Below are positions 6,103 through 42,830 of a DNA stretch of 64,000 bases, one piece after another. Origin of the DNA: an uncultured cyanobacterium. Lineage in GTDB: Bacteria > Cyanobacteriota > Cyanobacteriia > CAKZMO01. Every line of letters begins with the position of its first letter. The stretch's first letter is position 1. The notes beneath the pieces are model-generated. The model made no database searches, was not told where the DNA came from, and was given only the letters and a program-made list of their open reading frames with translations. The translations under genes and the position numbers were made by a program. Location of the stretch: NCBI GenBank assembly GCA_963719515.1, contig CAVRCJ010000005.1, forward strand, positions 128,001-192,000, in the 5' to 3' direction.

Positions 6103-6494
6103 GTGACATCCTCCCGACGCTGACAGCAAGCTGTACAGCGCGGGCTTCCTCAGTGACTCCCAGCTATTGCCGAGACATATCCTGAGATAGGTTTATACTC
6201 CGCCTGATGCCCCACGGCAGAGTTTTGAATTTTCATCTCCGCGAGGGAGGATACGCACTATGTGTCGCAGATACATTTGCAAACTGAGGAACGGGTGACT
6301 TGCAGCTTTCGCCTACGGGCCCGTCACACTCTTTGCGGGGTGTATCACCTTGCTATCTCTATCATACCAACTGCTAGCCTCAGCGCTGAGCGCACTATCC
6401 GCTGTGCATCATTTTGCGGGCGCACTTCGGCTAGCGCGACTCTCATCCCGACGCTCACCCTGACGGGTAGAGCGCGGGGCTTCCTGTCTAGTAG
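6103..6494 (-). mobile_element. Non-autonomous IS200/IS605 mini-element B (392 bp), inserted 3' of TTAG inside mscS
   Basis: Same end hairpins as element A; precise removal restores the mscS frame. Confidence 0.88.
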
Positions 6495-7481
6495 CTAAAA
6501 CCTCAGCCAGCTGCTCCTCGGTCACCGCTCGCCAGTCCTCCGCAAGCTCATCAACGGACTGGCCATTAAACCGAGCGTCTAACTCGGTAATTGTGAGAAT
6601 ATTGACGGGTCGCGAGAGGTCATCATTGGTGACTTGAAGAATCGTCGCGCCGTTTAAAACAGAAATCGAGACCTCGGCAGAATCACTATCGGCCAGTCGC
6701 TCTACCGCACGTTTCAGATTAGCTTCAATCAGCTCTGCCCGCAGCTCAACTGGATATCGGTTCTCGTCGTACTCACCGTCGCGGGTATATACCGTAGGCG
6801 CTGCGACTTGAAATAAGTCCTGCCGCAGCAGTGGCGATCGCACTGGGGCGGTTTCAATGCTGCCTAGACGCGTGACGGTGCTGGGCACATCGTGGGGCCG
6901 TGCATCAGTAGCTCCTGGAGCGAGTTGGCCATGAGCAGGGTCCATCGCTCCAGACGTTGTCCAAAACATGAAAGCGACGAGCAGCGCGCGAAGTATAAGC
7001 TTCCGTTTAAAGTGGCGGCGAAACATAAAAAATACGGGTGAAAGTCTTTAAATAGGTCGGCACCTAAGTTGCTTCGCCCGTCACAATACCACAGGACTCA
7101 GCCGGTGACACAGTCAGTCCATCAACGCGCGCGTGAGGAAGCTTACGAAGTCGTGGTTTCAACATTGGAACAGCTGCGCCAAAGCACTGATTGCTGGCAT
7201 TACGATAGAGGCAGCTAGGTTGCTCGAAATTTCTGAAGGCGCTTCTGAGGCGATACCGGATTTTCCGGGAATGGAGGTGGACTTTGAAGTCGAATTCTCA
7301 GCCGTGGGCTTTTCAGGGCAATATGGTGATTGCCAATACCCTGCTTCAGAATGATCATCCAAAGTTCAACTTAGTGCAGTCGCTGGCGCAGCAATCCCAC
7401 CTCCGACGCGGCGATCGCCATGCTGCGACACGATGAGGCGATCGCATTTCTGCTGGCGACCTCGGCCATTCAGCCCTAACT

Positions 7482-8399
7482 ATGTCTAATCTTGCCGCCT
7501 CCCGTCGCCCAAAACTAGCGATTCTGCTGATCACCGCCGCTGCCAGCCTTGGCATCGCTGCTCGGCTCTTTCTTTTAGGGGCAGCAGGGCAACTCATTTT
7601 CGTTCTGACGCGGGTCGTCATGCTCGCCCTACCGCTGGCCTGGTTTATCTGGGTTGATAAAGGCAAGCTCAGCCTGTCGTCCCCCTCAAAGCGACAGTGC
7701 CTAGATGGAGTCATCCTGGGGACCATTATGTTTGGGGTTATTCTTGGAGCCTACGGGCTGGTGGGGCAGCGCTGGATTGACCCGGCTGACGTCCGGCTAA
7801 AAGCAGAGCAGATTGGCCTGGCTCAGCCTCTGCTTTACCTAGCAAGCGCCATATACTTCACGCTCATCAATGCCCTAGTCGAAGAATATATCTGGCGCTG
7901 GTTTCTGTGCCGGCAATGCGCGGCGATCTTTAGCGGCGCTATCGCAATATATTTTGCCTCTCTCTGCTTCACGCTCCACCACATTATTGCCCTGGCTGCC
8001 TATACGGGGTGGCTCGTGGTAGGTGTGGGTTCCCTTGGCGTCTTTGCCGCCGGTGCGATTTGGTCGTGGTGCTATTTGACCTACCGCTCGCTGTGGGTCT
8101 GCTACATCAGTCACCTACTGGCAGATTTGGCGATCGCGCTTGTGGGGTGGCACCTTTTATTTGTTGCAGCCCCCGCCCTCTTGATCCACATTCCGCCCTT
8201 TCAATCCCTGGCTGGCGAGCAAAAGGGTCTAGCAGCGATTTTAAGAAAAATCGGGATGGCGGGATTCGAACCCACGGCCCCTTCGTCCCGAACGAAGTGC
8301 GCTACCAAGCTGCGCCACATCCCGAAGCGCTTGTACGCTTTAGCTTATCATAAGCCCATGGGAACCGCCGCTACCCGCATAAACAGACTGCCAAGATAG
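7482..8399 (+). CDS. CPBP (CAAX/Abi) family intramembrane glutamic endopeptidase; true 3' end uncertain
   Basis: EEYIWRW, FTLHH, SHLLAD motifs and multiple TM segments. The ORF tail runs antisense through the tRNA and is probably spurious after ~8200. Confidence 0.8.
   Translation: MSNLAASRRPKLAILLITAAASLGIAARLFLLGAAGQLIFVLTRVVMLALPLAWFIWVDKGKLSLSSPSKRQCLDGVILGTIMFGVILGAYGLVGQRWIDPADVRLKAEQIGLAQPLLYLASAIYFTLINALVEEYIWRWFLCRQCAAIFSGAIAIYFASLCFTLHHIIALAAYTGWLVVGVGSLGVFAAGAIWSWCYLTYRSLWVCYISHLLADLAIALVGWHLLFVAAPALLIHIPPFQSLAGEQKGLAAILRKIGMAGFEPTAPSSRTKCATKLRHIPKRLYALAYHKPMGTAATRINRLPR
8251..8324 (-). tRNA. tRNA-Pro(CGG)
   Basis: CGGGATGTGGCGCAGCTTGGTAGCGCACTTCGTTCGGGACGAAGGGGCCGTGGGTTCGAATCCCGCCATCCCGA: cloverleaf with anticodon CGG; CCA not encoded. 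Confidence 0.96.
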
Positions 8400-16739: not shown

Positions 16740-19700
16740 ATGCCTTCTAGCGCCGACTACCCTATCCCAATAGGGCTAGAATCATCCCTTATCAGGCGAG
16801 ACCCCATCATTGTCTCATCAGATACGGCGGTGATAGAGGCGATCGCCCAGATGGACAGCGCTCAAATGAACCATAGAGCCAGTCCGTCGCCAGAGACTGG
16901 CAGCGATGCAGCAAGCAATTTGATAGACGACCATCGACACTGCGTCAGCTGCGTGCTTGTGGTCCAGAACGGGCAATACGCCGGCATGCTGAGCGAGCGA
17001 GATGTCATACACCTCGTCGCACAGCGCCGCGCGCTCGATACCCTCTCAATGCAGCAGGTGATGGACCGCTCTGACATCGCGCTGCGCGAGTCGGACTTGG
17101 CGGTGTCCAACCTTGGTGCGGCCTTCAGGCTGGACAAGGGCGATCGCAGCCGATATCCCTATCTCCCCGTCCTCGACGAACAGAATTATCCTATTGGGCT
17201 TGTGAGCTGCGAGGCCCTAGCGCGCCGCTCATTGAGTGCCCCTGAGCAGAAGCAACATCCTTCAGGAGCCCTGCAGCGAACTGAGATGACTCAGAAGCTT
17301 CAAGACGAAGCGTGCAGGCGACAGCAGATTGAGGCGTCTTTAATTGAGAGCGAGCGGACGAATCGCACTCTCATTGACACGATGCCTGATCTGTTGATTC
17401 AGATGGACCGGCAGGGAAACTATAGCCGATTTGCCGGAGGCACTGCCATTCAGGCTAAGCCGCTGCCAGAACCCATTGACGCGCAAAACGTCTATGTCGG
17501 CCTATCGCCTGAGCTCGCACAGCAGCGACTACGCCATGCCAACCAAGCCCTTGATAGCGGCTGCCTGCAGGTGTACGAGCAGAGCTTTGACCGCGATGGC
17601 GACCTGCGCTACGAGGAGGTTCGCATCGCCCCTCTCAATGGGCAAGAGGTGCTCATCATTATTCGAGATATTACCGAGCGAAAACGATCCGAGGCCCAGC
17701 TACAGAGCCTAATTGCCGGTACCGCCGCCACAACCGGACAAGACTTCTTCCCTGCGCTGACACATCATATCTCAGAGACTCTGGAGGTTTCTCATGTTAT
17801 TGTAACCGAGCAAATTGGGCCAAACCTGAACGTACTGGCCTGCTCCATCAACGGAACGCTGCAGCCCGAGTTCTCGTATCAAGCTGCCACTACACCCTGC
17901 GAACAGGTTTTGCGGCATGGCTCCTTTTACTGTAGCAGTCTGCTTCAGCAGGCCTTTCCTGAGGACAACGATTTAGTAGAGATGGGGGTAGAGAGCTACC
18001 TAGGCGTCGCGTTGCGCAACAGCTCCGGTGAGAAAATCGGTACCCTATGTATTCTTGATGAGCGGCTGATTCCAAAACCAGAGTGGGCAGAACAAATTCT
18101 GCGCGTCTTTGCCGCTCGCGCCGCCGCTGAGCTAGAGCGGCAGCGGGCAAAGTCGTCTCTAGAGCAGCTCAACCAGCAGCTAGAAGCCAAAGTAAAAGAG
18201 CGTACCGCTGAGCTGCGGGAGCGCGAGCAGTTTTTACAGACTGTCCTAGATACATTTCCGCTATCCGTATTCTGGAAAGACCGCAACTCAGTTTACTTGG
18301 GCTGCAACCAAAATCTTCTTCGAGATGCCAATCTCAAGTCAGTTTCAGAGCTCATCGGGAAGACAGACTATGACATGCCCTGGTCCGAGACTGAGGCTGA
18401 GAGCTATCGGGCTAACGATCGCCACGTCGTCACTCAGAATGTTGCCAAGCTGGGAAGTATTGAGACTCAAGTCCATGCGGATGGCAGCCAACTTTGGCTA
18501 GAGACCAACAAACTTCCTCTACGCAATCTAGAGGGTGAGGTGATCGGCGTTTTGGGGACCTACCAAGACATCACCGAGCGCAAACGGGCCGAGCAAGCGC
18601 TGCAAGACAGTGAGCAGCGCTTTCGTAGCGCCATTGCCAATGCGCCCTTCCCCATTATGATCCGCGCTGAGGATGACGAGGTGCTGCAAATCAATGCGGT
18701 TTGGACTGAGCTAACCGGCTATACCCATGACGAGATTGCTACGGTCGGAGACTGGGTAAAGCTAGCCTGCGGCGATCGCGCTGCGAGTTGCCTGCAAACC
18801 ATTCACGAAAACTACAGCCTCACGGCTCGGCGGGATGACGGAGAGTTTGCGATTACGACGCGAGACGGGAGCCAGCGGATTTGGCTGATCACCACTACCC
18901 CGTTAGCTCCATTGCCCGACGGTCGCCGCGTCACGATGGCAATGGCTGTGGACATCACAACCCGCCGTCAGGCAGAGCTTGCGCTGCGGGAGAGCGAAGA
19001 GCGCTACCGCACCATTTACAACCAGGCGGCGATGGGCCTTGTGATTGCAACTGCTGACGGTAGACTCATTGACGTCAATCCGCATATTTGCGCGATGCTG
19101 GGCTACTCCCGTGAGGAGATTTTGTCGAAAACAGTCGAAGACATTACCCATCCTGACGATCGCCAGAACATTGTTTTGGCCAGAGATCTCTCTGACGGGG
19201 CAGAGAGAACAGACTTTTCTCAAGAAAAACGCTACATCCGTAAGGACGGCAGCACCTTTTGGGCTGCAACAGGCCTTTCATTTGTACGCGGGGCTGATGA
19301 TGAGTCCATGCACTGCATAGCCGCTATCCGCGACATCAACGATCGCAAGCGGGCCGAAGCTCAAGTCCATGCGCTACTCAACCGGACGCAGTTTCTCAAC
19401 CGCATCAGCTCCGAGATTCGAGATTCTCTCGATCTGGACATTATCTTACACAATTTGGTCAATGGCGTTGTCGCTGAGCTTCCGGTCGAGAGCTGTGTGT
19501 TTGCCTGGTACAGGTTTAGCGACAGCTCAGAGCGAAGCTCACATCTGCTAGAGGCGGTGATGGAGAAAAAAGTCAGTGGGCTGCAAAGCTGCATTGGGAC
19601 TTATACCTATGACGACTGCCCCGACATACTTGAGCACATTCTTGATAATCGGATTTACCGCATTGAGCGGCTAGCTGACGTTGAAGATGGGAAACTGTTG

Positions 19701-20792
19701 GAGCATCTCCAATCTGTCGGTCTTTCTACCTTGCTAGGGTTGCCCATCCATACGGCTGGCGGAGCAATCGGCGCCATTGTCTTAGGCCGAGTCACTGGCA
19801 GTCAGCCCTGGCGAGATGAGGAGATTGCTCTATTTCAAAGCATTGCCAACCAGGTGGCGATCGCCATCTACCAAGCCCAGCTTTACGAAGAATCTCAGGC
19901 CAAAACTCAGCAGCTTGAGCGCTCGTATCAGGAGCTGCAGGACGCTCAAATTCACATGGTGCAGGCTGAGAAAATGTCCAGCCTGGGGCAGCTCGTAGCG
20001 GGCATTGCCCATGAGATCAACAATCCTGTGGGCTTTATTTACGGCAATCTTGCGGCGGCGACAGACTATGTCAACAGCCTAACCACGCTCGTTCAGCACT
20101 ATCAAGATGCCTATCCAGAGCCGCCCCAGGCGATCGCTCAGCTTTCCAGGCAGGCCGACATCGACTACATCCTTGAGGACTTTCCGAAGCTGCTCAGCTC
20201 AATGGAAAATGGCGCAACCCGTATTCAGGCCATTGTTCAGTCGCTGCGCACCTTCTCGCGGCTAGAGCAGGTTGGACAATCGGCAGTCGATATCAACCAG
20301 CGTATCGACAACACGCTGGTGATCTTACAAAATCGCCTCAACGGACGCGCCGGCAAACCAGAAGTTGAGGTGGTTAAGCTGTACGGCGATTTGTCTTTGA
20401 TCGAATGCTATGGCAGCCTGCTTGACCAGGTGTTCATCAACTTGTTGGCAAATGCTGTCGATGCCATCGAAGAGCGACAGGCCAATGCTGAGCTAAATTA
20501 TGCGGGCCGCATCGCAATCACCACAGCGATCGCCTCAGACACTAGCGTTTCGATTTCAATTCAGGACAATGGTATTGGCATGGCGGCTGAGACTCAAGCT
20601 AGCATTTTTGATCCCTTTTTTACGACAAAGCCCATCGGTGTCGGAACGGGAATGGGCCTCTCGATCAGCTATCAAATTGTGGCAGGCAACCATAACGGAA
20701 AGCTTTATTGCCGCTCGGCTCCCGGAGGGGGAACCGAGTTTGTTGTCGAGATACCGAAGCGCTTGAGTGGTTCCATTGGTCCTGTCGCTTAG
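16740..20792 (+). CDS. Multi-sensor histidine kinase (CBS, PAS x4, GAF x2, HisKA, HATPase)
   Basis: Repeated DITERKR linkers, LVAGIAHEINNP H-box, DNGIG / GTGMGL boxes. Confidence 0.92.
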   Translation: MPSSADYPIPIGLESSLIRRDPIIVSSDTAVIEAIAQMDSAQMNHRASPSPETGSDAASNLIDDHRHCVSCVLVVQNGQYAGMLSERDVIHLVAQRRALDTLSMQQVMDRSDIALRESDLAVSNLGAAFRLDKGDRSRYPYLPVLDEQNYPIGLVSCEALARRSLSAPEQKQHPSGALQRTEMTQKLQDEACRRQQIEASLIESERTNRTLIDTMPDLLIQMDRQGNYSRFAGGTAIQAKPLPEPIDAQNVYVGLSPELAQQRLRHANQALDSGCLQVYEQSFDRDGDLRYEEVRIAPLNGQEVLIIIRDITERKRSEAQLQSLIAGTAATTGQDFFPALTHHISETLEVSHVIVTEQIGPNLNVLACSINGTLQPEFSYQAATTPCEQVLRHGSFYCSSLLQQAFPEDNDLVEMGVESYLGVALRNSSGEKIGTLCILDERLIPKPEWAEQILRVFAARAAAELERQRAKSSLEQLNQQLEAKVKERTAELREREQFLQTVLDTFPLSVFWKDRNSVYLGCNQNLLRDANLKSVSELIGKTDYDMPWSETEAESYRANDRHVVTQNVAKLGSIETQVHADGSQLWLETNKLPLRNLEGEVIGVLGTYQDITERKRAEQALQDSEQRFRSAIANAPFPIMIRAEDDEVLQINAVWTELTGYTHDEIATVGDWVKLACGDRAASCLQTIHENYSLTARRDDGEFAITTRDGSQRIWLITTTPLAPLPDGRRVTMAMAVDITTRRQAELALRESEERYRTIYNQAAMGLVIATADGRLIDVNPHICAMLGYSREEILSKTVEDITHPDDRQNIVLARDLSDGAERTDFSQEKRYIRKDGSTFWAATGLSFVRGADDESMHCIAAIRDINDRKRAEAQVHALLNRTQFLNRISSEIRDSLDLDIILHNLVNGVVAELPVESCVFAWYRFSDSSERSSHLLEAVMEKKVSGLQSCIGTYTYDDCPDILEHILDNRIYRIERLADVEDGKLLEHLQSVGLSTLLGLPIHTAGGAIGAIVLGRVTGSQPWRDEEIALFQSIANQVAIAIYQAQLYEESQAKTQQLERSYQELQDAQIHMVQAEKMSSLGQLVAGIAHEINNPVGFIYGNLAAATDYVNSLTTLVQHYQDAYPEPPQAIAQLSRQADIDYILEDFPKLLSSMENGATRIQAIVQSLRTFSRLEQVGQSAVDINQRIDNTLVILQNRLNGRAGKPEVEVVKLYGDLSLIECYGSLLDQVFINLLANAVDAIEERQANAELNYAGRIAITTAIASDTSVSISIQDNGIGMAAETQASIFDPFFTTKPIGVGTGMGLSISYQIVAGNHNGKLYCRSAPGGGTEFVVEIPKRLSGSIGPVA

Positions 20793-21173
20793 CGCGCAGA
20801 ATTACTCAGAAAATATCAATAGATGCTTAATTTACCGCCTAAATTAAAGCGGTCAAAGGCAATCTATCCTACTAGCAAAAGGGACGATGCCCTCAGAAAA
20901 TTCTGATTCTGTCGGCGAATTCTAGAGGTGTCCCGCCAGGCAAATCGCCCTTTGCGCAGCTTCTTTTGGCAGCATCGCCAAAATATTTTTATCCGCCAAT
21001 TTTCATTAAGATTCCCTTGCCCAAACCGAGGCATGAACAGACGGCAGACATCCTAGATGCCCCTCAATCTCAAAAGCTGGCCCGCTGCGATCGCCCACAG
21101 CCCTCATTTGAACCAGTTGGTCGCTCGCCAGCCAGCGGCCTGACAAATCGCGGCCCAAATGTAAAACTTCCCC

Positions 21174-21422
21174 TTGCCCCAACCGCAAAGATGTACTATT
21201 CTCATTTGCTATAGCCGTGGTTCCCATGGTTTAGTCTCCCAAGAATTCGGTCCGGGCGGAGCTGCGTGTTGCTAGTAACAACACGCAGCTCCTAAGCCCC
21301 CACGACAGGTATAGGCTGTCGGGAAGGCCTGAGGTACATTTTACCTGCGCCATCCCGAACGCACGACGTCTGGAGATGGCCGGTTTTTGGGGGACTCCAA
21401 CCCAACACAACTGGAGTCCCTC
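21174..21422 (+). promoter_or_regulatory. Promoter plus conserved structured leader, copy 1
   Basis: TTGCCC-N17-TATTCT followed by five hairpins matching copy 2 at 42586-42830. Confidence 0.65.
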
Positions 21423-21791
21423 ATGTTACCTCTAACTCACCTATCGCCCCTCACCGAGGCGGCGGCACAGTTCGCTGCAGCAGGTGGCCCGCTCGATCCC
21501 CTGCTCATTGAAGGGCCAGCTAACACCCCCATCCCCCCAACCCTAATCGAGCCCGCCCCCGCGCCGGGATGCGTTGGTCCTTCAAGACCAGTCGAAGACT
21601 CACATCTGCGCCACCTGATTATCGGCTCCCCCGATGGAGTACAAGACGCCGTCGCCCGTCTGCACCTGCTGCACTACGTGGAGCGACGCTACTGGACGCC
21701 GCTGATTGCCATCCGCGATCGCGGCATCCACCTCACCCCCACCCATGGCCAAGTGCTCAGCTACCTAGTGCAGCAGCGGCCTATTCGCTAG
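21423..21791 (+). CDS. Small hypothetical protein, paralog of 42831-43307
   Basis: ATG after GGAG; C-terminal domain LRHLIIGSPDGVQDAVARLHLLHYVERRYWTPLIAIR. Confidence 0.75.
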   Translation: MLPLTHLSPLTEAAAQFAAAGGPLDPLLIEGPANTPIPPTLIEPAPAPGCVGPSRPVEDSHLRHLIIGSPDGVQDAVARLHLLHYVERRYWTPLIAIRDRGIHLTPTHGQVLSYLVQQRPIR

Positions 21792-22077: not shown

Positions 22078-23508
22078 ATGACCGACCTGATTTTATTCTG
22101 GCACCGCCGAGACCTGCGCCTCTCGGACAATGTGGGCCTCGCCGCCGCCCGTAGTCAAAGCCCCAAGGTCGCTGGCGTCTTTTGCCTCGACCCCAACCTG
22201 CTAGAGGCAGACGACGTCGCCCCCGCTCGCGTCACATACATGATGGAGAGCTTAGAAGAGCTGCGGGACGGCTACGCTCAGGCGGGAGGCCAGCTGCTGA
22301 TTCTGCAAGACGACCCCACAAAGGCAATTCCCGCCCTGGCCCAGGCCCTGAGCGCTACGGCAGTCTTTTGGAACTGGGACGTCGAGCCCTATGCCCAAGC
22401 ACGCGATCGCCAGGTGCGCGAAGCCCTCAAGGAAATTGGCGTACAGGTCCATACCAGCTGGGATCAGCTGCTGCACGCGCCAGGGGAGGTGCGCACCAAC
22501 GCCGGAGACCCCTATACGGTATACACGCCCTTTTGGAAGAACTGGAGGACTCACCCCAAGGCCGCCCCTGAACCGAAGTTTTCAGAGGCTGAAGGGCTTT
22601 CCTCCAGCGAAAAGCAGGCCGCTGAGGCGGCGGGGGCGATCGCGCTGCCCACCGCCAAAGACCTGGGCTTTGAGTGGGACAATCCGCTGCTGCTGGCCCC
22701 CGGCGAAGCCGCAGCCCTAGAGCGACTAGAAGAGTTTTGCGACGGCGATCGCACCATTGCCGAGTACGACGACCAGCGCAACTTTCCGGCGGTGCCCGGC
22801 ACCTCTCATTTGAGCGCAGCCCTCAAATTTGGCACCCTGGGCATCCGCACCGCCTGGGAGCAGGCCGACGAGGCGCTCAGCCGCTCTCGCAGTGACGACA
22901 CCCAGCGCAACATCGAGACCTGGGAGAAGGAGCTGGCCTGGCGAGAGTTCTATCAGCACGCCATGTACTTCTTCCCGCAGCTGGCGGAGGGGCCTTACCG
23001 AGACCCCTTCAAAGATTTTCCCTGGGAGAACAACGAAGAGCACTTTCAGGCCTGGTGCGAAGGTCGCACCGGCTACCCCATCGTCGATGCCGCCATGCGC
23101 CAGCTCAACGAACTGGGCTGGATGCACAACCGCTGCCGAATGATTGTGGCCAGCTTCTTGACCAAAGACCTGATTATCGACTGGCGCTGGGGAGAGAAAT
23201 ATTTTATGCAGCGGCTCTATGACGGTGACCTGTCGGCCAACAACGGCGGCTGGCAGTGGAGCGCCTCTAGCGGCATGGACCCCAAACCGCTGCGCATCTT
23301 CAACCCCGCCAGCCAAGCCCAAAAATATGACCCAGAAGCGGAGTATATCCGGGAATGGCTCCCGGAGCTGCGCAGTGTGGATACAGGGCCGCTGGTGACG
23401 GGGAATATCCCGGAAGATGAGCGCGATCGCTGCGGGTATGGGCCGCCCATTGTGGACCACAAGCAGCAGCAGCGACACTTTAAGGAGATCTACAAGGCTC
23501 AAAAGTAG
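22078..23508 (+). CDS. phrA: Class I CPD DNA photolyase
   Basis: WHRRDLRLSDN, ELAWREFY, TGYPIVDAAMRQL, GWMHNRCRMIVASFL. Confidence 0.93.
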   Translation: MTDLILFWHRRDLRLSDNVGLAAARSQSPKVAGVFCLDPNLLEADDVAPARVTYMMESLEELRDGYAQAGGQLLILQDDPTKAIPALAQALSATAVFWNWDVEPYAQARDRQVREALKEIGVQVHTSWDQLLHAPGEVRTNAGDPYTVYTPFWKNWRTHPKAAPEPKFSEAEGLSSSEKQAAEAAGAIALPTAKDLGFEWDNPLLLAPGEAAALERLEEFCDGDRTIAEYDDQRNFPAVPGTSHLSAALKFGTLGIRTAWEQADEALSRSRSDDTQRNIETWEKELAWREFYQHAMYFFPQLAEGPYRDPFKDFPWENNEEHFQAWCEGRTGYPIVDAAMRQLNELGWMHNRCRMIVASFLTKDLIIDWRWGEKYFMQRLYDGDLSANNGGWQWSASSGMDPKPLRIFNPASQAQKYDPEAEYIREWLPELRSVDTGPLVTGNIPEDERDRCGYGPPIVDHKQQQRHFKEIYKAQK

Positions 23509-42585: not shown

Positions 42586-42830
42586 TTGCGGCAGCTGACC
42601 CAATGCGATAAAGTCACTTCTTGAGAGCTGCATCCCGCAGCTTGGCTCCCAAGACTTTGGTCAGCGGAGACGACCGTCAGTAGCAATGGCGATCGCCTCC
42701 TAACCCCCTCGACAGACAATCCCTGTCTCGGCGGCTACGGGCATTATCCCGTGCCATCCCGAAACACGTCACGTCTAGGGATGGCCAAACCTTGGGTTTT
42801 CTGCCCAATTCACAACAGAGAACCCCAAAA
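42586..42830 (+). promoter_or_regulatory. Promoter plus conserved structured leader, copy 2
   Basis: TTGCGG-N17-TAAAGT; same order of motifs and hairpins as copy 1, with compensatory changes. Confidence 0.65.

Follow-up and report, generated by a model that had tools for sequence, protein, structure and literature searches.

The window analysed here is a stretch of 64,000 nucleotides from the 5.28-Mb genome of an uncultured cyanobacterium (G000:C5:128001-192000). It holds two copies of a compact gene cassette in which a promoter of the sigma-70 type is followed by a folded leader of about 210 nt and then by a small protein gene. Copies 1 and 2 share 77% column identity over the 300-nt stretches compared, and their elements follow one another in identical order. 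The initial annotation of the window had listed promoter and hairpin elements common to the two loci, and all of them were found in place. That the leader represents a real and new family of structured RNAs is strongly supported. Very probably, it is a cis-regulatory element that sequesters the Shine-Dalgarno (SD) sequence and is tied to a single protein family.

The leader folds into a 5'-terminal hairpin (P0), a long-range closing helix (Pc) drawn around four hairpins (P1-P4), and a final hairpin (P5) that pairs the SD sequence. The coordinates of these elements and of the two open reading frames (ORFs) are collected in Table 1. In copy 1, the transcription start site (TSS) of the sense transcript is predicted near 21209. 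Single-sequence folding gives z-scores of -6.70 for copy 1 and -5.32 for copy 2. The minimum free energy (MFE) fold of copy 1 contains P0, Pc, P1, and P5, and that of copy 2 contains P0-P5 without Pc. Five hairpins had been annotated initially; all five are present, but a sixth, P0, had been missed.

Table 1. Elements of the two cassettes in the window (CM, covariance model).
Feature	Position	Strand	Evidence or remark
Copy 1 sense promoter: -35 TTGCCC (21174-21179), N17, -10 TATTCT (21197-21202)	21174-21202	+	Sequence; all 44 full-length copies have TTGnnn-N16-19-TAnnnT
Copy 1 P0, 5'-terminal hairpin at the predicted 5' end	21209-21234	+	MFE fold; covariation
Copy 1 Pc 5' strand, GTCTCCCAAGAATTCGGTC	21234-21252	+	RNAalifold pairing with the 3' strand; covaries
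Copy 1 P1, 14 perfect bp, hypervariable loop	21258-21292	+	Strong stem covariation
Copy 1 J1/2, C-rich single-stranded junction TAAGCCCCCAC; family consensus CTnAnCC	21293-21303	+	Consensus of 76 leaders
Copy 1 P2, GACAG/CTGTC	21304-21320	+	RNAalifold and both CM alignments
Copy 1 P3, AGGTA/TACCT, length variable across the family	21332-21346	+	Both CM alignments; per-sequence folds
Copy 1 candidate antisense -10 box TAAAAT, inside P3	21338-21343	-	Hexamer conservation; antisense TSS predicted near 21330
Copy 1 P4, GCCATCCC/GGAGATGGC, conserved loop (..ACGTC)	21349-21380	+	Both CM alignments
Copy 1 Pc 3' strand, GGCCGGTTTTTGGGGGAC, G-run in common with P5	21378-21395	+	RNAalifold and CM alignments; overlap measured
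Copy 1 P5, GGGACTCC/GGAGTCCC, SD-sequestering; SD GGAG at 21413-21416	21391-21420	+	MFE fold; covariation
Copy 1 ORF P0001, 122 aa, ATG at 21423	21423-21791	+	Disordered N-terminus and conserved C-terminal domain of ~65 aa
Copy 2 promoter TTGCGG-N17-TAAAGT and leader	42586-42830	+	Full-length R1 match, 81.6 bits, locus L020
Copy 2 P0	42625-42643	+	
Copy 2 Pc 5' strand	42646-42662	+	
Copy 2 P1	42666-42700	+	
Copy 2 P2	42711-42727	+	
Copy 2 P3	42737-42752	+	
Copy 2 candidate antisense -10 box GATAAT	42743-42748	-	Consensus scan GTGACG-18-GATAAT, 9/12 matches
Copy 2 P4	42753-42785	+	
Copy 2 Pc 3' strand	42783-42796	+	
Copy 2 P5	42794-42826	+	
Copy 2 ORF P0002, 158 aa	42831-43307	+	

Covarying structure is seen in three separate alignments, one of which was not fitted to the structure. 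In that one, a MAFFT-only alignment of 44 leaders, RNAalifold recovered Pc, P1, P2, and part of P3, with a compensatory change in 19 of 28 pairs. The other two rely on a covariance model (R1) of 59 pairs and 236 positions, constructed from 19 leaders of type A with a hand-drawn structure. Among 46 own-genome loci searched, R1 identified 45 full-length leaders. In their alignment 90.8% of cells are paired, as against 76.5% after shuffling, and none of the 500 shuffles reached the observed value; sliding the partners lowers pairing to 37-45%. Both-sided change occurs in 43 of the 59 pairs. Applied with default filters to loci of other genomes, R1 returned 25 matches, 23 of them distinct. Here 89.7% of cells are paired (71.5% shuffled), 52 of the 59 pairs show both-sided change, and each helix is supported. 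That the hairpins exceed chance expectation is borne out by the fold z-scores, the 44 leaders, and the covariation measured against the shuffles.

The support extends to the individual helices. P0 is 94.3% paired in the own-genome alignment and 87.8% paired in the other-genome alignment, with both-sided change in 5 and 7 of its 8 pairs, respectively. The corresponding counts for P1 are 12 and 10 of 14 pairs. P2 changes on both sides in 5 of 6 pairs in each CM alignment, and P3 does so in 5 of 5 pairs, with predicted stems ranging from about 4 to 13 bp. P5 (helices 7-8) is 97% paired, with both-sided change in all 8 pairs. Conservation is unevenly distributed over the leader. Among pairs of leaders that are 80-97% identical overall, the least conserved parts are the P0, P1, and P2 loops (identity 0.40-0.54, with the P1 loop at 0.40). 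The P4 loop reaches 0.83, the P4 loop and the junctions together span 0.83-0.95, and junctions and stems span 0.89-0.98; the synonymous divergence (dS) is 0.155 or more. The conserved junction bases across 76 leaders are CTnAnCC and GG...

P5 occurs in three covarying versions: GGGACTCC:GGAGTCCC in 19 leaders, GGGTTTCC:GGAACCC in 10, and GGGTTTTCT:AGAAAACCC in 15. Each pairs the GGAG or GAGAA beside the ATG, and 2-5 nt separate the end of the hairpin from the start codon. The SD sequence is sequestered by this covarying hairpin, in agreement with the initial annotation, which had placed it in a hairpin next to the ATG. In most copies, the P5 loop (21400-21405 in the window) repeats a CCCA(A) motif like that of the Pc 5' strand. 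Judging from its sequence, this loop could serve as a third partner for the UUGGG strand.

A pairing of GTCTCCCAAGA with TTTTGGGGGAC had been described initially as an alternative to P5. The two segments do pair, and the strand opposite the 5' CCCAA segment abuts and overlaps the left arm of P5, but the pairing is actually the conserved closing helix of the junction. In copy 1, CTCCCAAGAATTCGGTC sits at 21236-21252, and the inner part of Pc joins TTCGGTC with GGCCGG. The helix covaries (TTCGG:CCGG versus TTTGG:CCAAA). The clearest individual cases are two loci: at L089 the entire helix is swapped for CAGAACTC:GAGTTCTG, and at L091 it is built of GCGCTCAAAC:GTTTGGGCGC. Despite the different sequence, both leaders keep the pairing as well as the overlap with the left arm of P5. 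Pc and P5 are contiguous, and in 74 of 76 leaders the Pc 5' strand can go on pairing for 1 nt or more of the P5 arm. This overlap is 1-2 nt long in 36 leaders; another 10 have 3-5 nt, and 28 have 6 nt. The anti-sequestration overlap of the initial annotation reaches 5-6 nt only in the leader subtype that it described. The shared stretch fits a strand-exchange switch, weakly so where the overlap is 1-2 nt. For these short overlaps, coaxial stacking of coexisting Pc and P5 is equally possible.

The initial annotation had recognised the cassette as multi-copy from two loci, a count that proved too low, as dozens exist. An iterated profile search of the genome yielded 82 ORF pieces, which were read as about 75 family loci, and a six-frame search with P0001 gave 53 matches. 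Of the 75 or so loci, 44 to 45 have the leader in full length and others have it in diverged form. The complete cassette of promoter, leader, and gene is present in about 57 copies or more. Iterated nhmmer searches with the promoter-plus-leader sequence gave 60 matches, 44 of them full length, and partial leader matches were found in 13 more rows. All 44 full-length leaders lie directly 5' of a family ORF, and 40 of these ORFs are intact and 4 broken. For 20 loci without an nhmmer leader, an unfiltered CM search produced weak matches (E <=0.002) in 5. The two of these that were inspected both lie 5' of the ORF, and still weaker matches occur at other loci.

In most of the 44 copies, similarity begins 10-20 nt before the -35 box and ends at the stop codon, and a few recent duplicates share 55-640 nt of extra similarity upstream. 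The conserved unit is exactly the stretch from promoter to stop codon. The closest paralog pair has a dS of 0.155, and the ratio of nonsynonymous to synonymous divergence (dN/dS) of close pairs is 0.11-0.25. Over 767 pairs, 766 values are below 1 and the median is 0.43, which is unreliable on account of saturated pairs. The ORFs are under purifying selection. Because of the limits of similarity, the dS of 0.155, and the low dN/dS values, the family is regarded as old and selected, unlike an active mobile element. The spacer of the sense promoter (21180-21196 in the window) carries a conserved CAAATG or CCAATG about 3 nt 5' of the -10 box in all 44 promoters. This motif is a hint that the whole family may share one sigma factor or regulator.

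The intact ORFs encode proteins of 91-158 aa. Pfam, NCBIfam, PADLOC, and PHROGs yielded no family for the window proteins and two paralogs, Pfam yielded none for 42 distant representatives, and a sequence profile search of the PDB returned one chance row (E 0.96). The AlphaFold models have pLDDT values of 63.9 for model 1 (83-94 at residues 61-110) and 70.1 for model 2. They show a disordered N-terminus, a confident strand-helix core, and further strands. In structure searches, the best Z was 4.0 in the wide VIA-align search, and Foldseek against the PDB gave nothing at E <=0.001. No relation to SymE or AbrB was found by sequence or fold in the family and structure searches, and Rfam and the protein libraries gave no match to a transposase, reverse transcriptase, known ribozyme, or mobility domain. 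The last 65 residues are basic, with a median isoelectric point (pI) of 9.6, and the disordered N-terminus is acidic. Among the intact ORFs, the maximum Kyte-Doolittle value of a 19-residue window is 1.16, under the value of about 1.6, which indicates no membrane helix; the family proteins are predicted to be soluble. The ESM Atlas contributed only unnamed cyanobacterial clusters. The named relatives are entries called 'hypothetical protein' in records of Elainellaceae, Phormidesmis, and Leptolyngbya, with the close ones coming from metagenome-assembled genomes of Elainellaceae.

The protein family reaches well beyond the source genome. Of 61 related genomes, 30 contain matches to its profile, the highest number in a single genome being 53. 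The profile matches all 4 other genomes of the genus, 12 of 16 others of the family, and 51 of 401 genomes of an even sample of the phylum, for which at most 12 candidates were scored per genome. A profile search of 1.84 billion representatives gave at least 278 clusters at E <=0.001 among the matches listed, and the best 150 of those clusters are all 36-185 aa long. Within the 61 related genomes, with 35 candidates scored for each, R1 matches 14, among which three further cyanobacterial families are represented. In the pairs compared (G056:C20, G032:C54, G050:C62), the R1 match lies directly 5' of the protein match. Among 20 loci from seven more distant genomes, the R1 leader was detected in one (L152, 34.6 bits). 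Because R1 is biased to type A, it probably detects too few of the distant leaders. The RNA is linked to this one protein family only, and this holds in at least five cyanobacterial families.

The wider family has at least two forms of leader, and the large junction leader is one of them. Homologs in genus g54 have a different, shorter conserved leader with one 11-bp stem, followed by ACACCCC and GAGG-ATG. Loci L154-L164, from genomes G412 and G126 of an AT-rich genus, display TTGCAT-N17-TATAnT, an 11-bp stem GTAAGGTGATC/GATCACCTTAC with a variable interior, and then ACACCCC and GAGG-ATG; farther 5' lies another conserved block with TTGACA. Another cyanobacterial family contributes two genomes with a single reported match each. 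There the homolog lies directly 3' of a gene for a DUF7662 and HTH_3 (XRE) protein (L061, 1492-2373, and L060, 1504-2462, both on the minus strand), and the R1 leader was not found. The initial annotation had named homologous ORFs without the leader as evidence that would count against it. In the lineages that R1 can see, such a loss is not observed, because R1 leaders adjoin homologs in other genomes. Its broader proposal of an uncharacterised, multi-copy, RNA-regulated family stands: the leader is kept in other genera and families, its stems covary, and no match to an Rfam family was obtained.

At gathering score, the whole window gave a single match in Rfam 15, a tRNA gene at 8251-8324 on the minus strand. 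At E <=10, the region 21100-21500 gave two chance-level matches that scored 15.7 and 11.8 bits where the gathering scores are 100 and 50. A full-text literature search did not find the RNA or the protein family described. Because neither RNA nor protein matched any of the family libraries searched, the cassette appears to be an undescribed cyanobacterial gene-control module. A comparative search for RNA structures beside cyanobacterial genes, similar in kind to the present one, has been reported for 202 genomes (Geissler et al. 2026, PMC12873609). As described there, its catalogue of conserved RNA structures is anchored on 931 KEGG-orthology groups, so an unannotated family such as this one would not be an anchor. 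Systems of the type I toxin-antitoxin (TA) class, according to the account in PMC12390103, were earlier found only in Proteobacteria, Firmicutes, and Tenericutes, and a system of Microcystis is the first cyanobacterial candidate.

On the minus strand, all 57 distinct versions of the P3 region carry a hexamer of the TAnAAT type, with base counts T41 A57 n A42 A56 T57 and invariant A2 and T6. The best minus-strand match to TATAAT in this region has at least 5 of 6 positions in 61 of 76 leaders and 4 of 6 in the remaining 15. Among control windows of the same length taken elsewhere in these leaders, at least 5 of 6 positions match in 2 of 393 cases on the minus strand and in 6 of 393 on the plus strand. 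Relative to the RNA, the position of the hexamer floats: at one extreme it lies 5 nt within the 5' arm of the predicted P3, at the other 4 nt within its 3' arm. It is followed by YAG, with the A at +7 in 26 versions and at +8 in 18; one version has it at +9, and YAG is absent in 12. The minus-strand -10-like element that had been noted in hairpin 3 of two copies is, accordingly, a family-wide feature, combined with YAG at +7/+8 in 44 of 57 versions. The hexamer fits a -10 box for antisense transcription acting at the DNA level. A floating position in the RNA together with a constant distance to the YR start site points to such a box and can hardly be squared with a docking loop. The P0, P1, and P2 loops all fall under the proposed antisense RNA. 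Their divergence fits recognition loops specific to each paralog, although free loops of an aptamer would look alike.

The best reading, by analogy, is a control module resembling hok/sok or symE/symR in architecture and serving a soluble protein that carries a basic domain. Each cassette would be an independent gene with its own conserved promoter, leader, and small protein gene. Pairing of the SD sequence in P5 would leave the full-length mRNA translationally silent by default. The -10 box in the P3 DNA would drive a cis-antisense RNA, which would begin at the 5' base of P3 and run back over P2, the C-rich junction, P1, the Pc 5' strand, and P0. Pairing between this RNA and the leader would probably nucleate at the fast-evolving P1 and P2 loops, which would make each paralog pair private. 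It would then strip away the Pc 5' strand, with the result that the G-run is locked in P5 or that the duplex is exposed to cleavage; either outcome would set the translation of the ORF. The data show the fold with its covariation, the sequestered SD sequence, the exclusive link of RNA and ORF over several cyanobacterial families, the conserved minus-strand hexamer with its spacing, and purifying selection on the ORF; both TSSs, the antisense RNA and its action, the direction of regulation, and any toxicity are inferred. That a cis-antisense RNA from the P3 box is the trigger is assigned a probability of roughly 0.4 and is therefore held tentatively.

In the hok/sok system, the leader is inert and pairs over long range, the ribosome-binding site (RBS) is sequestered, an antisense promoter lies inside the leader, and several chromosomal copies exist. 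The present cassettes are alike in their covarying leader, predicted to be inert, in its long-range pairing and hidden RBS, in the candidate antisense promoter pointing to the 5' end of the mRNA, and in their presence as several chromosomal copies. They differ in that the hok toxin is a hydrophobic peptide of about 50 aa, whereas here a soluble protein of 91-158 aa with a basic domain is encoded in tens of copies, in the phylum Cyanobacteriota, and the antisense RNA and any toxicity are hypothetical. In symE/symR, a soluble protein of about 110 aa is encoded behind a 5' region under a cis-antisense RNA, and SymE is SOS-regulated and single-copy. The likeness again lies in a soluble protein whose 5' region is under a cis-antisense RNA, predicted in the present case. 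The elaborate multi-helix junction 5' of the ORF and the missing relation to SymE or AbrB set the family apart. Type I toxins are small and usually hydrophobic membrane peptides, with SymE and RalR as soluble exceptions. As in type I TA systems, translation would be blocked by the structure of the mRNA itself, through the P5-paired SD sequence of the predicted fold, but the hydrophobic toxin has no counterpart here. The resemblance to type I TA is one of architecture only, and the membership in that class suggested by the initial annotation is not upheld for a soluble protein of this length without a hydrophobic segment.

Several further observations weigh against antisense control. The length of the proteins and the lack of a hydrophobic window are unlike classical type I toxins, and a multi-helix junction exceeds what an antisense mechanism needs, being typical of RNAs that bind ligands or proteins. 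Seven copies of the source genome form a subgroup with a mismatch in the middle of Pc (AAA opposite CGG), and the Pc/P5 overlap is no more than 1-2 nt in the 36 leaders mentioned above. Neither a -35 box nor an extended -10 element for the antisense promoter is conserved among the leaders, and a generic promoter scan calls the antisense site in copy 2 only. A conserved intrinsic terminator for the antisense RNA was not seen on reading the leader alignments. The initial annotation had let this RNA end at hairpin 1, where the minus strand has no conserved terminator either. The hexamer could instead be an apical motif of the RNA, AUUnUA. The sequencing-run listing comprises 4 DNA runs of sediment metagenomes from one study and no RNA run. 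As regards the fold itself, the CM alignments lean towards the modelled structure, and kinship among paralogs inflates the shuffle controls.

Antisense control, autoregulation, and ligand sensing are not mutually exclusive. In an autoregulatory leader, the basic C-terminal domain of a cassette's own protein, or of pooled paralogs, would bind the junction RNA, stabilise Pc and P5, and repress translation. The exclusive linkage of the RNA to one protein family over at least five cyanobacterial families is what such a leader predicts, and the basic C-terminus behind an acidic, disordered N-terminus, the conserved junction nucleotides, and the conservation of promoter, leader, and ORF as a unit agree with it. 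Leaders of the ribosomal-protein type share this single-family linkage and the occlusion of the SD sequence; they differ from the present family in its massive paralogy and in a protein without a recognised RNA-binding fold. Indeed, no RNA-binding fold or family was recognised in the structure, Pfam, NCBIfam, and PDB searches. The strand-specific hexamer and the YAG at +7/+8 are left unexplained, and homologs of genus g54 and of single-copy genomes dispense with the junction leader. Autoregulation is regarded as unlikely, albeit worth keeping in view. An orphan riboswitch, in which the Pc-P1-P2-P3-P4 junction is an aptamer for a small molecule or ion and a ligand-stabilised Pc competes with P5 for the G-run to open or close the RBS, appears rather unlikely but likewise merits consideration. 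It would account for the covarying stems, the conserved junction bases with variable apical loops, the stable single-sequence folds, and an expression platform that adjoins Pc through a shared G-run; translational riboswitches have a covarying junction whose closing-helix 3' strand competes with an SD hairpin, as Pc may do here. However, riboswitch classes usually control several ligand-linked gene families, and here 44 of 44 leaders, and likewise those of other genomes, precede one family. P3 varies in length, one subgroup has a disruption in the middle of Pc, no Rfam family matches, and the embedded strand-specific -10-like element has no place in this scheme. More than 45 copies per genome would also be unusually many for a riboswitch.

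A constitutive leader without a switch, whose P0 and compact fold would stabilise the mRNA and damp translation of an expanded family, agrees with the position of P0 at the predicted 5' end, with the coexistence of Pc and P5 in the MFE fold of copy 1, and with the short overlaps. Such a leader is improbable, given that some 210 nt are conserved well beyond the level of synonymous sites and that six covarying helices over several cyanobacterial families exceed the needs of stability. Promoter, leader, and ORF would spread together if the cassette were mobile or selfish, for instance a transposon end, a retroelement RNA, or a ribozyme cassette. About 75 dispersed loci, some of them clustered, and the broken ORFs would suit this reading. 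The similarity confined to the cassette in most of the 44 copies, the dS of the closest pair, and the dN/dS of close pairs led to its rejection as highly improbable. Flanking repeats were not seen, and the searches matched no transposase, reverse transcriptase, known ribozyme, or mobility domain; the usual marks of such an element, terminal repeats or duplicated targets, a gene for mobility, and nearly identical copies, were not borne out.

The neighbourhood of copy 1 was inspected by eye, without a family search. The 1350-aa ORF at 16740-20792 (+) resembles a multi-domain sensor histidine kinase, and the 476-aa ORF at 22078-23508 (+) resembles a DNA photolyase or cryptochrome; no functional link between these flanking ORFs and the cassette was seen. 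Elsewhere in the window, a repeat of about 400 bp (about 6103-6513; G000:C5:134103-134513) recurs at many sites of the genome with 98-99% identity (98 blastn rows). One copy of it interrupts a family leader on contig C1 (G000:C1:181238-181992), and the 771-bp insert around that copy has an HNH-like stretch in one reading frame. From its sequence, the repeat is possibly a group II intron that has been truncated, or else a remnant resembling MITEs (miniature inverted-repeat transposable elements).

In its most far-reaching form, the proposal concerns a hitherto unrecognised, phylum-specific RNA-protein superfamily with a regulatory role. Dozens of private leader/antisense pairs per genome, insulated by their fast-evolving P1 and P2 loops, would each act as the gate for a soluble effector that carries a basic domain; alternatively, the leaders would form a new class of orphan riboswitch with an unusually high copy number. 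This is a doubtful proposition at present. If antisense gating is true, the family would be the first large type I-like antisense-gated family in cyanobacteria, with a new RNA fold and a promoter inside a hairpin. Type I-like or riboswitch-like control would then be extended to a phylum in which it is barely documented. Filamentous cyanobacteria would hold tens of compact, self-contained post-transcriptional switches that are not listed in the RNA, protein, and defence libraries searched. The roughly 76 distinct leader variants form a natural set for studying the orthogonality of paralogous RNA regulators. The leader also provides the first regulatory handle on a protein family that is annotated without a function and is present in 51 of the 401 cyanobacterial genomes sampled.

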